64,000 nucleotides of DNA, taken from Thermoanaerobaculia bacterium (GTDB lineage: Bacteria > Acidobacteriota > Thermoanaerobaculia > Multivoradales > UBA5704). The DNA lies in NCBI GenBank assembly GCA_044866775.1, contig JBIOUG010000142.1, positions 1,847 through 65,846 of the forward strand, read 5' to 3'. A program made the position numbers and the translations under genes. The notes under the pieces were generated by a model. The model saw only the letters and a list, made by a program, of their open reading frames with translations. It ran no database searches and was not told the origin of the DNA. Shown here one piece after another: positions 22,504 through 54,045 of the stretch (position 1 is the first letter of the stretch; the number at the start of each line of letters is the position of its first letter).

Positions 22504-22851
22504 TCAGATGTTGAACTGGCGCAAGAAGTTCTCGCGCAGCTTCTGGTTGAACTGATGGTCCGTCAGCCGGTAGTAGATGGTCTGCGCGTCACGCCGCGGC
22601 GCCACGAGGCCGTAGGCCTTGAGCTTCGCGAGGTGCTGGGAGACGGCGGAGACGGAGACTCCGAGCATCTCGGCCAGGTCGCAGACGCACAGCTCTTTCA
22701 TGTTCTCGAGCAGATAGAGGAGCTTGAGCCGGGTGGAGTTCCCGGCCAGGTTCATCAGCTCCGCCGCTTCCTCGATGTCCGGTGTGCCCTCGAGCTGGGC
22801 ACGCATGTGGGCCATCTCCTTCTGGGTCATGGTGGGCGCCTCGCCTTTCAT
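22504..22851 (-). CDS. ArsR/SmtB-family metalloregulator
   Basis: TRLKLLYLLENMKELCVCDLAEMLGVSVSAVSQHLAKLKAYGLV is a wHTH with the ELCVCDL metal(loid)-sensing motif. Confidence 0.85.
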   Translation of the reverse strand: MKGEAPTMTQKEMAHMRAQLEGTPDIEEAAELMNLAGNSTRLKLLYLLENMKELCVCDLAEMLGVSVSAVSQHLAKLKAYGLVAPRRDAQTIYYRLTDHQFNQKLRENFLRQFNI

Positions 22852-22929
22852 CGCATCTGCCTCCAGTAGTTGAGGTTAGAGCCTCGAATGCAGCCTCTCC
22901 GGGACCGACCCGGGAGGAATTGCAGCCTC

Positions 22930-22943
22930 ACTTCATATGAAGT
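22930..22943. promoter_or_regulatory. perfect 14-bp palindrome, candidate ArsR/SmtB operator
   Basis: ACTTCAT|ATGAAGT lies ~80 nt upstream of the arsR-like ATG in a locally AT-richer divergent intergenic region. Confidence 0.4.
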
Positions 22944-23086
22944 TGTCCCGCAAACCACGGTCGAAGGCACCTTATAACATACCTCCGGCGCAATTTCATC
23001 CTTCCAGCAAGCAGACTCGTGCTGGAGTTGGCGGTGACTTGGCCGCCCCCACCTATAATGCCAGGCGGCCGCAGCACGCGGCAGTC

Positions 23087-23158
23087 GTCCCCCTCTCCCA
23101 TGTGGGAGAGGGGCCAGGGGTGAGGAGATCGGATCAACGCAGTAAAGGTAGACGCAGC
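23087..23158 (+). repeat. ~70-bp hairpin repeat (family 2), copy 1
   Basis: gtccccctctcccatgtgggagaggggccaggggtgaggagatcggatcaacgcagtaaag contains the hairpin CCCCTCTCCCA/TGGGAGAGGGG. Confidence 0.8.
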
Positions 23159-23195
23159 TCCGACCCTCTCCCAAACCCCCTCCGAGGAGATGCCA

Positions 23196-23456
23196 ATGTC
23201 GAGCTCCATCTCTATCCACTACTGCGTAGTCTGAAACTACTACCCCCGCGCCGCCGGTCTGGCGGCCGAGATCGAGAAGCGGTTCGGCATCCGACCCAAC
23301 CTCGTCAAGGGCAAGGGCGGCGTCTTCGACGTCACCCTCGAGAACGAGCTGATCTTCTCAAAAAAGAAGGAGGGGCGCTTCCCGCTGCCCGGTGAAGTGG
23401 AGCAGAAGATCGAGGAGCGGGTGGGCGCCGCGACGGAAGGCCCCTTCACGGTGTGA
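23196..23456 (+). CDS. SelW/Rdx-family selenoprotein (CxxU; in-frame TGA at 23232..23234 read as Sec)
   Basis: MSSSISIHYCVV[U]NYYPRAAGLAAEIEKRFGIRPNLVKGKGGVFDVTLENELIFSKKKEGRFPLPGEVEQKIEERV. The N-terminal 12 codons with SD GAGGAGA and the 73-codon downstream part are in one frame, joined by TGA. A SECIS-like hairpin follows. Confidence 0.8.
23247..23268 (+). promoter_or_regulatory. bacterial SECIS-like stem-loop downstream of the UGA
   Basis: CG(c)GCCGCC-GGUCU-GGCGGCCG. The apical loop begins 21 nt after the UGA. Confidence 0.65.
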
Positions 23457-24589
23457 GCGGCGGGCCGGCCCTCATCGCCGCCGCGCTCCTGCTCGCGCTG
23501 GCGTTGCTCGTCGAAGAGCGGCGGCGGCGCGCCCCGCCTCTCCCGCCTCCGCCCGCCGCCCACGAAGCCGTCACCGTCCTCCTCCCGGTCCGCGACGAAG
23601 AGGACAACGTCCTCCCCTGCCTCGACACGCTCCTCGCCCAGACCGCCGCGCCGCGGGTGGTGGTCGTGGACGACGGCTCGACCGACGCGACCGCTGCGCT
23701 GGTCGCCGCGCGCGCCGCCGGCGAGCCGCGGCTGACGCTGCTCGCCGCCGGCCCGCTCCCCGCCGGCTGGCGCGGCAAGCTCCACGCCCTCGCCGCCGGC
23801 CGCCGCGCCGTCGCGACGCCCTGGGTGCTGTCGACCGACGCCGACACCCGCCACGCTCCCGACCTCCTCGCCCGCGCCCTGGCCGCCGCCGCCGAGCGGC
23901 GGCTCGACGCCGTCTCCGTCGCCGGCCGCCAGCGCGCCCGCGGCTGGGAGAACCTCCTGGTGCCGCCGGTCTTCGCTCTGCTCGACGCCGTGCTCGGCGA
24001 CTGGGAGGCGGCGGCGCGCGGCGACGGGCCGCCCGTCGCCAACGGCCAGTTCGTCCTCGTCCGCCGCGCCGCCTGGGATGCCTGCGGCGGCTTCGCCGCC
24101 ATCCGCCATGCCCCGATCGACGACGTCGCGCTCGCCGCGCGCCTGCGACAGGGGGGCTTCCGCAGCGGCTTCTTCCGCGACGACGGGCTCGAGATCCGGA
24201 TGTACCGCGGCCTGGGCGAGGCGCTGCGCGGCTGGCGGCGCAACCTCGGCGGCCTTTTCGGCGGCTCGCCGGCCCGCGCGGCGGCGCTCCTCGCCGCGCT
24301 GGTCCTGCCGCCGGTCGGGCTGGTGGCGGCCCTCGCCGCCGGCCGGCCGGTCGACGCGGTCCTCCTCTGGACCGCCGGCGCCGCCGCCTCCGCCCTCCTC
24401 CGCGGCGGCGCCGGCCAGGCGCCGTTCTGGGGGCTCCTCTGGCCGGCCGACGCGCTCCTCCTCGCGGCCACGCTGGCGCTCGGCGTCGTCGACCACCGGC
24501 GCGGACGGCTGGTCTCCTGGAAGGGGCGCGAGATGCGGCTCGGCTCAAGTCAGTGCCATCGACGTGGCGGTGGCGATCCTCGGGCTTGA
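23453..24589 (+). CDS. family 2 glycosyltransferase (membrane-associated)
   Basis: VTVLLPVRDEEDNVLPCLDTLLAQT...VVVVDDGSTDAT, with C-terminal TM segments. The GTG start overlaps the selW-like stop (GTGA). Confidence 0.8.
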   Translation: MSGGPALIAAALLLALALLVEERRRRAPPLPPPPAAHEAVTVLLPVRDEEDNVLPCLDTLLAQTAAPRVVVVDDGSTDATAALVAARAAGEPRLTLLAAGPLPAGWRGKLHALAAGRRAVATPWVLSTDADTRHAPDLLARALAAAAERRLDAVSVAGRQRARGWENLLVPPVFALLDAVLGDWEAAARGDGPPVANGQFVLVRRAAWDACGGFAAIRHAPIDDVALAARLRQGGFRSGFFRDDGLEIRMYRGLGEALRGWRRNLGGLFGGSPARAAALLAALVLPPVGLVAALAAGRPVDAVLLWTAGAAASALLRGGAGQAPFWGLLWPADALLLAATLALGVVDHRRGRLVSWKGREMRLGSSQCHRRGGGDPRA

Positions 24590-24611
24590 CCGGGTCTTCC
24601 GAGCTGCTTCC

Positions 24612-24678
24612 CTCTTTACGGCGTCGATCCGATCTCCCTCACCCCTGGCCCCTCTCCCACGTGGGAGAGGGGGACGTC
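24612..24678 (-). repeat. ~70-bp hairpin repeat (family 2), copy 2, inverted relative to copy 1
   Basis: ctttacggcgtcgatccgatctccctcacccctggcccctctcccacgtgggagagggggac is the reverse complement of copy 1 with a few substitutions and one indel. Confidence 0.8.
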
Positions 24679-24695
24679 TACTCGATCCCGGCCGG

Positions 24696-25193
24696 TCACC
24701 CCGCGAGCGGCGCCTCGTAGACGCAGCTCTGCCCGGCCGACTCCTCGACCGACACCGCCAGCGACTCGACGCGCGTGCCGGCGAGCTGCGGCGCGATCTC
24801 TTCCCACAGCATGCGGGCAAGCAGCTCCATCGACGTGTTGGCGAGCGGCAGGAGCAGGACGTCGGCGGCGGGGAAGCGGTAGAGCCGCTGGTCGAACCGC
24901 ACCTCGACGGCGTCCCCCTCCTCGGTCCAGGCGATGTCGCGGCTGGCGGCCGGGATCAGCGTGCGGTTGTCGAGCCGGGCGCAGGCGGCGCGGATCGCCC
25001 GCTTCGCGGCTTCGATGTTGGCGAGGAGCCCGGTGTCGTCGAGCCCGTCGCCCGAGAGCTCCATCGCGACGTGGTAGTTGTGGCCGTGGAAGAGCTCCGC
25101 CCGCCCGGCGCCGAAGATGGTGAAGTGAGCGGAGGAGAACTTGAAGTCCTCTTTGGCAAGGACGATGCGGTAGCGCGGCGCGCGGGCGGGCAT
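24696..25193 (-). CDS. 6-pyruvoyl-tetrahydropterin synthase / QueD-family protein
   Basis: FKFSSAHFTIF...ELFHGHNYHV is the PTPS His triad pattern. Confidence 0.85.
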   Translation of the reverse strand: MPARAPRYRIVLAKEDFKFSSAHFTIFGAGRAELFHGHNYHVAMELSGDGLDDTGLLANIEAAKRAIRAACARLDNRTLIPAASRDIAWTEEGDAVEVRFDQRLYRFPAADVLLLPLANTSMELLARMLWEEIAPQLAGTRVESLAVSVEESAGQSCVYEAPLAG

Positions 25194-34950: not shown

Positions 34951-35625
34951 TCAACGCAGAGCCCAGAACGCGCCGCCGAGGCCGAGCTGAGTGAAGAGCG
35001 CCTCGGTCTCCTCGAGGGTGCGCCGGCGCCACGCCGGATTGCGGCGGTCGGCGGCGTACCAGGCGCGCGCCAGCTCCCATGCCGTCTGCAGCGCGAGCAG
35101 GGCGCCGCGTTCCATGCTCCACTGCCGGCACCAGTGATCCACGTGCTCTTCCGACCGGAAGAGGAGCATCGTCCGTCAGGTGAAGACGATGTCCTCCCAC
35201 CAGCGCCGCGCCGGGACGGCGAAGTGGACGAGGCCCGCGGCTGGTTGCAGCGCGCCGTCCTCGACCGCGAGCGGCATCGCCGACCCGCAGCAGCCGCAGC
35301 TCGCGAGGATCCGCCCGTCGCTCCCGAGCATCGCCGGGACGCCGAGGGCGTCCCAGATGCAGTTGCCGAAGTACAGGCGCCCCGCCGCCTCGACCGCGAA
35401 CGGCGTCGGCACGGCCGAGAACGGATTGGCCATCAGCACCTCGCCGGCGCCGGGCTGGAGGACCAGCACCCGTCCGGCGGCCAGCCGCTCGAAGGCGGCA
35501 AGGACGTCGCTCGGCTCGATCCCGAGCCGCTCGGCGACCTCGGCGGCGAGCGGTGGCCGGCCGCTGTCGATCGTTGCGGCGTACACTTCGCGCCGGACTT
35601 CGCGGTCGAGCTCTTCGGGTGTCAT
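34951..35625 (-). CDS. MerB (alkylmercury lyase)-family protein with in-frame TGA (35176..35178) at the catalytic Cys159 position; candidate selenoprotein
   Basis: ORFs 35176..35625 and 34951..35169 share one frame and are separated by TGA plus 2 codons. GNCIWDALG corresponds to the MerB Cys96/Asp99 motif. WWEDIVFT[U]RTMLLFRSEEHVDHW aligns to MerB SFCCHVHFFAS...W. A SECIS-like hairpin follows. Confidence 0.7.
35146..35163 (-). promoter_or_regulatory. bacterial SECIS-like stem-loop downstream of the UGA in the merB-like gene
   Basis: mRNA CUCUUCC-GGUC-GGAAGAG (7-bp stem). The loop begins 20 nt after the UGA. Confidence 0.6.
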
Positions 35626-52404: not shown

Positions 52405-54045
52405 GTGCACCGCGCCCGCCGACGCCTGCTGCTGCTCTTGGCGTCGCTGCCGCTCCTGGTGCTCGTAGCGGCGGTGCTCTACCAGCTCGGCATGGCGCGT
52501 CTCGAGGGGGCGCCGCGCGGCTTCTGGCACAGCCTCGAGTGGGCGGGGGAGACCCTCACCACCACCGGCTACGGCTCCGACTCCCGCTGGCGCCATCCGG
52601 CGATGGTGCTGTTCGTCGTCGCGCTCCAGTTCGTCGGCGTCTTCCTCGTCTACCTGCTCGTCCCGGTCTACCTGATCCCGGTCCTCGAGGAGCGCTTCGA
52701 GACCCGCCTGCCGGTGCGGCTCGCCGACGACCTCGCGGACCACGTCCTCCTCTTCCGCTACGGCCCGGCAGTCGAGACCCTGCTCGCCGAGGCCGCCGGC
52801 GCCGGCATCGCGACGCTGGTGCTGGAGCCCGACGAGGCCGAGGCGCGGCGGCTCTTCGAGCGCGGCCAGCCGGTGCTCCACCGCGGCCTCGACGCCGAGT
52901 CGCTGCGCGCGGCGCGCCTCGACCGCGCCCGCGCCGTCGTCGCCAACGGCAGCGACGACGAGGACGCGGCGCTCATCCTGACCGCCCGCCAGCTCGGCTA
53001 CGCCGGGCCGATCTACGCCCTGGTCGAGGAGCCGTTCCACCGCCAGCCGATGATGCTCGCCGGCGCCACCGCGGTCTTCACGCCGCGCCACATCCTGGGG
53101 GCCGCGCTGGCGGCGCGGGCGAGCGCGCGGCTCGGGCCGCGGGTCGAGGAGATCGGCCACCTCGGCCGCAGCCTCGAGGTGGCGGAGGTGCGCATCCACC
53201 CCGGCAGCCCGCTCGCCGGCCAGACCCTCGGCGCCGCCGGGATCGGCGCCAGGACCGGCGCCACGGTCATCGGCCAGTGGCTGCGCGGCAAGCTCCTGAC
53301 GCCGGCCACCGCCGACCTGCGGCTCGAGCCCGACGGGGTGCTGGTGGCGGTCGGCGGGCGCGACAGCATCGACCGCCTGACCGAGCTGGCGCACGGCGGC
53401 GCGGCGCGGCGCCGCGGCGAGGGGCCGTTCGTGGTCTGCGGCTACGGCGAGGTGGGCGGCAAGGTGGTCGAGCTGCTGCGCGAGGTCGGGGAGGAGGTGC
53501 GGGTGATCGACCGCCGCGCCAGGGAGGGCGTCGACGTGGCCGGCGAGGTGCTCGACCCGCGCGTCCTCGAGCGCGCCGAGGTGCGGGCGGCGCGCGTCGT
53601 CATCCTCGCCCTCGACAGCGACAGCGCCACCCTCTTCGCCACCGTCATCCTGAAGGACCTGGCGCCCGAGGTGCCGGTCATCGCCCGCGTCAACCAGGCC
53701 GAGAACGTCGAGCGCATCCACCGCGCCGGCGCCTACTTCGCGCTCTCGATCAGCCAGGTCTCGGGGATGATGCTGGCGCGGCGGCTGCTCGACGAGGAGG
53801 CGGTGTCGATCGATCCCCAGTTGAAGGTGCGGCGGGTGCCGGTCGCGGGCGTCCTCGTCGGCCGGCACCCGGCCGGGCTCGGCATCCGCGAGCGGACCGG
53901 CGCCTCGGTGGTGGCGGTCGAGCGCGGCGACGAGGTGCTGGTCGAGCTCGATCCGCGCTTCCGCTTCGCCGCCGGCGACGCCGCCTACGTCTGCGGCAGC
54001 GCCGAGGCGGTGCGGCGGTTCGTCGAGGAGTTCAAGAGCGCCTGA
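52405..54045 (+). CDS. potassium channel protein with two RCK (TrkA-N/TrkA-C) modules
   Basis: Selectivity filter TLTTTGYGSD. Rossmann-like FVVCGYGEVGGKV. C-terminal TrkA-C-like segments. GTG start. Confidence 0.85.
   Translation: MHRARRRLLLLLASLPLLVLVAAVLYQLGMARLEGAPRGFWHSLEWAGETLTTTGYGSDSRWRHPAMVLFVVALQFVGVFLVYLLVPVYLIPVLEERFETRLPVRLADDLADHVLLFRYGPAVETLLAEAAGAGIATLVLEPDEAEARRLFERGQPVLHRGLDAESLRAARLDRARAVVANGSDDEDAALILTARQLGYAGPIYALVEEPFHRQPMMLAGATAVFTPRHILGAALAARASARLGPRVEEIGHLGRSLEVAEVRIHPGSPLAGQTLGAAGIGARTGATVIGQWLRGKLLTPATADLRLEPDGVLVAVGGRDSIDRLTELAHGGAARRRGEGPFVVCGYGEVGGKVVELLREVGEEVRVIDRRAREGVDVAGEVLDPRVLERAEVRAARVVILALDSDSATLFATVILKDLAPEVPVIARVNQAENVERIHRAGAYFALSISQVSGMMLARRLLDEEAVSIDPQLKVRRVPVAGVLVGRHPAGLGIRERTGASVVAVERGDEVLVELDPRFRFAAGDAAYVCGSAEAVRRFVEEFKSA

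Follow-up and report, generated by a model that had tools for sequence, protein, structure and literature searches.

Introduction

Bacterial SelW-like selenoproteins, described by Zhang et al. 2005 (PMC1088965) and Zhang et al. 2006 (PMC1794560), are small CxxU proteins of about 80–90 residues, the genes of which carry an in-frame UGA and then a stem-loop with a small, G-containing apical loop. Their Sec form outnumbers the Cys forms, and their function is presumed to be redox. Several solved proteins labelled 'SelW-related' belong to the same fold family (Atu0228, 2FA8; SAV_2001, 3DEX; 2OKA, 2OJL, 2OBK and 2P0G); these carry CxxC, with Cys and not Sec, and have no known function or partner. 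The bSECIS of E. coli fdhF is a mini-hairpin that follows the UGA at a short, fixed distance; SelB recognises its apical loop, which is of the GGUC type. In eukaryotes, selenoproteins have been found together with glycosyltransferases, SELENOT with STT3A-OST and SELENOF/Sep15 with UGGT (PMC7563561).

The locus described here lies in a window of 64,000 nucleotides (the whole stretch of DNA that was analysed) from a Thermoanaerobaculia bacterium, the genome of which (G000) is a 92%-complete MAG of 5.8 Mb in 196 contigs. We conclude, with a probability of roughly 85%, that it is a genuine SelW-like (Rdx-family) selenoprotein gene, with a UGA at codon 13 built for reading as Sec, forming the first cistron of an operon with a GT2 glycosyltransferase gene. 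The locus is a real but ordinary SelW-like redox-protein gene of a known family. In size, motif, in-frame UGA with following stem-loop, prevalence of the Sec form and presumed function it resembles the described bacterial proteins; unlike them, it belongs to a clade of uncultured Acidobacteriota (Thermoanaerobaculia), with about 50–57% identity to two relatives in the protein collection, and it stands first in an operon with a membrane GT2. A literature search found no paper joining 'Rdx family', 'glycosyltransferase' and 'selenoprotein'.

The eukaryotic pairs likewise combine a CxxU or thioredoxin-fold selenoprotein with a glycosyltransferase machine, and SELENOT is itself in the Rdx family. 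Their selenoproteins, however, sit in the ER membrane or the ER lumen and act on the folding of glycoproteins, whereas Rdx and GT2 are linked by gene adjacency and GT2 is unrelated to STT3 or UGGT. The conserved Rdx–GT2 operon, which parallels these pairs, offers a testable handle on the function of bacterial SelW-like proteins.

Results and discussion

A SelW-like reading frame with an in-frame TGA

The Rdx gene occupies positions 23196..23456 of the plus strand and encodes 86 residues plus stop. From the ATG at 23196 the frame reads MSSSISIHYCVV-TGA(23232–23234)-NYYPRAAGLAAEIEKRFGIRPNLVKGKGGVFDVTLENELIFSKKKEGRFPLPGEVEQKIEERVGAATEGPFTV and closes at the TGA at 23454–23456, with 73 sense codons between the internal and the terminal TGA. 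A Shine-Dalgarno sequence, GAGGAG (23184..23189, plus strand), precedes the ATG with a spacing of 6 nt, and AGGAGG-type sites are found 5' of nearly all Rdx homologues. A second in-frame ATG at 23190, two codons upstream, abuts the Shine-Dalgarno sequence and is the less likely start. The first-pass annotation had proposed this frame, from its start and ribosome-binding site through the internal TGA to the end at 23454..23456, and all of these elements are present in the sequence. It had also stated that no start codon follows the internal TGA and that the frame is absent from the ORF track; past the internal TGA, a frame scan found no ATG, GTG or TTG until codon ~67, and the six-frame ORF list holds no ORF in the Rdx frame.

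Membership of the Rdx/SelW family, suggested earlier from the residue pattern, was borne out by profile searches with the U-to-C translation. The product matched Pfam Rdx (PF10262) with 70.2 bits against a cutoff of 22.6 (E=1.8e-19) and TIGR02174 (CXXU_selWTH) with 53.6 bits against a cutoff of 34.2, so a chance match to the family is far excluded. The NCBIfam equivalog NF041051 (SelTWH_Campy) gave 85.9 bits, under its 88-bit cutoff; the product is related to this group yet should not be filed as a member.

The redox motif is C10-V-V-U13, with Cys10 at 23223–23225 and Sec13 encoded by the TGA at 23232–23234. The product aligns end to end with the six solved CxxC proteins, which are about 20 residues longer, and their CxxC corresponds to C10 and U13. 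The TGA had been placed at the CxxU position by the earlier reading, and in 2FA8 and 3DEX the residue opposite U13 is indeed the second Cys of the CxxC. The AF2 model (pLDDT 84, built on 18 homologues) has the order beta1-[CxxU]-alpha1-beta2-beta3-beta4-alpha2, with strands at residues 5–10, 35–39, 44–48 and 51–55 and helices at 16–30 and 67–77, which is the topology of the Rdx family. The CxxU thus lies at the beta1/alpha1 junction of a thioredoxin-like beta-alpha-beta-beta-beta-alpha fold. The Rdx product has no signal peptide, so that the protein is predicted to be cytoplasmic.

Among 5.8 billion protein clusters, screening brought up just two Rdx relatives (P0003 and P0004), both with W at the Sec position (CVQWNYY and CGEWNYY), which fits the earlier view of a gene missed by ORF finders. 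Given this W, the two gene calls exist only through a reading of TGA as Trp on contigs that almost certainly use the standard code. The Rdx gene is missed by gene finders because its UGA codes Sec. A gene that occurs in about a third of the sampled Acidobacteriota genomes is therefore nearly invisible in public protein collections, and annotation of the phylum under-counts the Acidobacteriota selenoproteome.

Conservation of the UGA codon and of the hairpin behind it

The in-frame TGA is widely retained. Of 41 relatives spread over the order, 39 have an Rdx homologue that carries it, and C-x-x-TGA is present in 29 of 29 extracted Rdx genes. In an even sample of the phylum (301 Acidobacteriota genomes), 103 genomes have an Rdx homologue and all but five of the matches listed carry the TGA, in agreement with the rarity of Cys homologues of SelW-like proteins in Sec-decoding organisms (PMC1794560). 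The UGA stands in frame where homologues have Cys, and the frame downstream of it is conserved.

A check for a bSECIS found a conserved bSECIS-like hairpin 3' of the UGA, GCCGCC-GGUCU-GGCGGC at 23250..23266 (plus strand), with a GC stem of 5–6 bp starting 15 nt past the UGA and a loop starting 21 nt past it. The consensus 5-bp stem is present in 33 of 33 sequences, with a single C>U change retained as G.U. At the nucleotide level, codons +6 to +10 (A-A-G-L-A) read GCC GCC GGT CTG GCG in 39–40 of 40 sequences, the Gly column being identical in 36 of 36, and the frozen Gly codon, GGT, is locally rare. In a synonymous-site test on 40 distinct, ungapped Rdx homologues, other conserved four-fold Gly, Ala and Pro columns vary freely (normalised entropy 0.58–0.91), and the zone means are 0.26 for the hairpin codons against 0.60 for the others (Mann-Whitney p=0.009). 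We regard this synonymous constraint, as read from the aligned genes, as the decisive evidence for the predicted hairpin. It was used instead of folding energy because the latter is no better than that of shuffled GC-rich controls (z=-0.29). No compensatory covariation is seen in the stem, owing to its invariance, and an Rfam scan of 22800–23600 at E<=10 gave noise only and no SECIS family.

The position of the hairpin, its GGUCU loop and the frozen synonymous sites fit the published bSECIS, in which the UGA is immediately followed by a stem-loop that has a G in its small apical loop (PMC1088965). As in the fdhF element, the loop is of the GGUC type and lies a short distance after the UGA; the Rdx stem differs in being shorter and all-GC with no obvious bulged U, and its loop is set back from the UGA by about one more codon.

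A reading of the TGA as a true stop or an error, with the Rdx similarity a mere relic of a pseudogene, would account for the failure of standard gene callers to report a gene. It meets the same TGA at the same codon in about 100 genomes of the phylum, a conserved downstream frame and a frozen hairpin, and is effectively refuted by these comparative data; we give it almost no credence.

The window holds a second Sec candidate, a MerB-like gene on the minus strand (~35130–35178, near 35.1 kb) with an in-frame UGA. There the UGA is followed, after 12 nt, by CUCUUCC-GGUC-GGAAGAG, in which the loop is of the same type as in Rdx and at about the same distance.

The downstream membrane GT2 glycosyltransferase

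The GT2 gene (23453..24589, plus strand) encodes a membrane GT2 glycosyltransferase of 378 residues. Its GTG at 23453–23455 is the first possible start and directly overlaps the Rdx stop (GTGA), as the first-pass annotation had noted; the stop/start overlap is kept within the genus as GTGA or TTGA. The protein matches Pfam PF00535 with 60.8 bits, as well as related families, and its D73/D74 and D129-A-D131 motifs are invariant, so that a GT-A domain profile and a DxD motif are both in place. The best NCBIfam matches fall far below their cutoffs, with 136 against 379 bits for HpnB (TIGR03469) and 131 against 600 bits for CruG (NF045692). The genome lacks a squalene-hopene cyclase, its CrtI-family matches are all below threshold, and on these grounds we rejected an HpnB or CruG identity.

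In the AF2 model of GT2 (pLDDT 89), a TM helix at the N terminus is followed by a GT-A domain and then by helices at the C terminus. The closest fold match is PcManGT (6YV7, a membrane mannosyltransferase), followed by BcsA and HAS (hyaluronan synthase). This layout, with the GT-A domain on the cytoplasmic side and carrying GWRR and the invariant motifs DD and DAD, is shared with PcManGT and cellulose-synthase-like membrane GT2s and, by sequence, with HpnB and CruG; PcManGT differs in sequence, with only 23% identity to GT2. Flags of '1 TAG / 1 TGA inside' on GT2 orthologues were considered as possible recoding and dismissed, since the alignment had run past the end of the orthologues and taken in their own terminal stops.

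Extent and origin of the Rdx–GT2 pairing

Adjacency of Rdx and GT2 was observed in 19 genomes of one family (f1) and in one genome (G032) of another, sister family. In the species-genome collection, Rdx lies upstream of 17 of the 17 GT2 orthologues (at least 55% identity) that have upstream sequence, and of none of the GT2 homologues at 40% identity or less. Among 25 distinct junctions, GT2 starts within 30 nt of the Rdx stop in 18 and after a gap of more than 30 nt in seven; an SD-like motif, and a weak one, precedes GT2 in three of them, as against the AGGAGG found nearly always before Rdx. The pair therefore has the sequence hallmarks of a translationally coupled operon, namely a common strand, a stop/start overlap and a downstream gene without its own Shine-Dalgarno sequence.

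The two genes also stay together in rearranged loci (L052 and L053). Three f1 genomes (G017, G019 and G024) have Rdx followed by the convergent PTPS gene with no GT2 between them, and in G017 the GT2 gene is on another contig with no Rdx gene preceding it. Upstream of this relocated GT2 (L086, G017:C140:29200-34500), the ORF translations look like those of a nucleotidyltransferase-type protein and a small DUF2442-like ORF, neighbours that would suggest a mobile setting or one of the toxin-antitoxin type. Rdx stands beside unrelated genes in other families of the order. Comparison of coordinates by eye, among the matches listed in the phylum sample, gave no independent Rdx–GT2 pairing outside f1 and G032. 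These distributions point to a single origin of the pairing, followed by its retention. The unusual pairing to which the first reading had drawn attention thus holds across a family-level clade, but it arose apparently once and is not obligatory.

We propose that the Rdx gene is ancient and largely self-standing in Acidobacteriota, and that a membrane GT2 gene was placed once directly behind it in one family-level Thermoanaerobaculia clade. The two genes would be co-transcribed. At UGA13, the GC hairpin with its GGUCU loop would recruit SelB with Sec-tRNA(Sec), giving an 86-residue cytoplasmic thioredoxin-fold protein in which Cys10-x-x-Sec13 may cycle between selenol/thiol and selenenylsulfide while reducing a target. 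GT2, having no ribosome-binding site of its own, probably owes its translation to ribosomes that have just completed the selenoprotein ORF.

Possible roles of the pair

What the pairing may mean was considered in terms of a direct partnership and of translational control. Rdx could serve the membrane GT2 as a redox subunit or as a regulator, acting at the cytoplasmic face of the membrane on the enzyme or on its acceptor, comparable to SELENOT with OST and SELENOF with UGGT. Such a partnership would fit a tight or overlapping operon kept over deep divergence (53–80% identity for Rdx, 55–78% for GT2) and through rearrangement, two proteins both predicted to face the cytoplasm, and the association of eukaryotic CxxU/thioredoxin-fold selenoproteins with glycosyltransferases (PMC7563561). 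It sits poorly with the presence of Rdx throughout the order and the phylum without this GT2, with the three f1 genomes that have no GT2 between Rdx and PTPS and the G017 GT2 that no Rdx precedes, and with the single origin of the pairing. Nor does GT2 offer an evident target, as it has no CxxC, a search for conserved Cys pairs in it found none, and its only well-conserved Cys sits in a motif that we take to be generic to GT2 enzymes. We consider a dedicated partnership unlikely. More broadly, since Rdx is widespread without GT2 and one genome has its GT2 elsewhere, a functional link between the two is plausible but unproven.

Synthesis of GT2 might instead depend on Sec insertion at UGA13, so that envelope glycosylation would be contingent on selenium status. 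The overlap or short gap (up to 30 nt) at 18 of 25 junctions and the SD-like motif at only three, against the strong Shine-Dalgarno sequence of Rdx, would suit such a gate, and translation-coupled selenium control downstream of a Sec codon has a precedent in fdhF(Sec) of Treponema primitia (PMC3892789). The seven junctions with longer gaps speak against it, as does the Rdx protein itself, which is under strong purifying selection and occurs without any downstream gene in most lineages, so that Rdx is not merely a leader. We judge the gate quite improbable. A double duty, in which Rdx would be both redox partner and selenium gate of GT2 and the selA deletion described below a natural knock-down of both, seems an equally long shot. 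The reading that we prefer remains that of a SelW-like selenoprotein gene heading an operon with GT2.

Sec-decoding genes and an internal deletion of selA

The first-pass annotation had made its reading depend on Sec-decoding genes in the genome. These are largely in place: selB (342 bits), tRNA-Sec (selC; 70.6 bits, with an anticodon TCA by ARAGORN) and a selD that has an in-frame TGA of its own (Sec-containing) and is split over two contig ends; selA, on the other hand, is internally deleted in the assembly. No match to TIGR00474 or PF03841 was found in the genome, and tblastn with a congener's SelA gave nothing in it beyond a selA remnant. By comparison, selA is present in 36 of 41 relatives, including all four congeners.

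Loss of selA in an assembly gap was ruled out by synteny mapping. In the congener G001, assembled as a single contig, the sequences flanking selA have collinear counterparts within one 80.5-kb contig (C192) of G000, where G001 2884712–2886034 aligns with C192 52001–53469 and G001 2887156–2888604 with C192 53458–54872. About 1.12 kb internal to selA is cleanly missing, with no Ns, and the breakpoints coincide with short, imperfect direct repeats rich in GC. The remnant (C192:53326–53550, outside the window), still in frame, is an ORF of 74 codons that joins about the first 47 and the last 27 codons of selA, with the junction at ~53458–53469.

Without SelA, no Sec-tRNA can be made. Because selA is internally deleted, Sec decoding may be off in this strain; UGA13 would then terminate translation after 12 residues, and Rdx, possibly with the coupled GT2, would be silent, the Sec trait having been lost recently and before decay of the selenoprotein genes. 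The clean 1.1-kb deletion between direct repeats on a collinear 80-kb contig, and the lack of any other selA-like sequence by HMM or tblastn, argue for such silencing. It has to be set against selB, tRNA-Sec, selD(Sec), Rdx and the MerB-like gene, all intact with the TGA codons and hairpins kept, and against a window Rdx with one private substitution at conserved sites (E8H), a number also found in four other sequences. At least three UGA-containing genes of the genome are still intact. Relaxed constraint on Rdx and GT2 was looked for in this genome and gave no signal. With the MAG at 92% completeness, an intact selA allele could also lie on a short contig left out of the bin or belong to a co-existing strain. 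We put silencing in this strain at somewhat below even odds. Either the deletion arose recently or the population is mixed and the deleted form is one of its alleles. The deletion does not change the identity of the Rdx gene as a selenoprotein gene and questions decoding in this strain only. If confirmed by reads, it would capture Sec-trait loss at its first step, while the selenoprotein genes are all still intact.

Flanking elements and neighbouring genes

The block consists of leftward genes for an MBL-hydrolase and an ArsR-type regulator, then rightward Rdx and GT2, then a leftward PTPS gene. A perfect TATAAT at 23055..23060 (plus strand) is a putative -10-like box of the Rdx–GT2 operon; no canonical -35 was found for it. 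In 18 of 27 distinct relatives a perfect TATAAT lies ~7 nt upstream of the Rdx Shine-Dalgarno sequence, and in the window the insertion of a repeat element between the two has moved it ~115 nt further upstream.

This element, a dispersed palindromic repeat of ~81 bp at 23083..23163 (core CCCCTCTCCC-ATGT-GGGAGAGGGG), would be in the 5' leader if the TATAAT is the promoter. It gave 91 blastn HSPs, with at least 45 copies of 60 nt or more genome-wide, and is absent from the leaders of the congeners. An inverted copy at 24598..24679, directly past the GT2 stop, is complementary to it over 43 nt at 95% and 40 nt at 83%, and the two copies could pair on one Rdx–GT2 transcript. A mobile cassette formed by inverted repeats around Rdx and GT2 was considered and rejected; with the element so dispersed in the genome, the bracket is probably incidental. 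One further copy lies upstream of selD.

The divergent gene upstream of Rdx encodes an ArsR/SmtB-family regulator (22504..22851, minus strand; Pfam HTH_5, with an ELCVCDL motif). It is the most conserved gene of the block, with 83–98% identity across f1, and by its position is a possible regulator of the Rdx–GT2 operon. A palindrome, TTCATATGAA, in the arsR/Rdx intergenic region (22852–23195) was discarded as a conserved site, being unique to this genome and absent from all 26 relatives. Other motifs of the intergenic region recur, TTGAACAATCTCGATTATACTCA in 9 of 27 relatives and TTGTCCCG in 21 of 27.

On the other side, the convergent PTPS/QueD-like gene (24696..25193, minus strand; Pfam PTPS) is the most widely conserved neighbour of Rdx, with or without GT2 between them, and accompanies it in other families of the order also (L043, L044 and L046).
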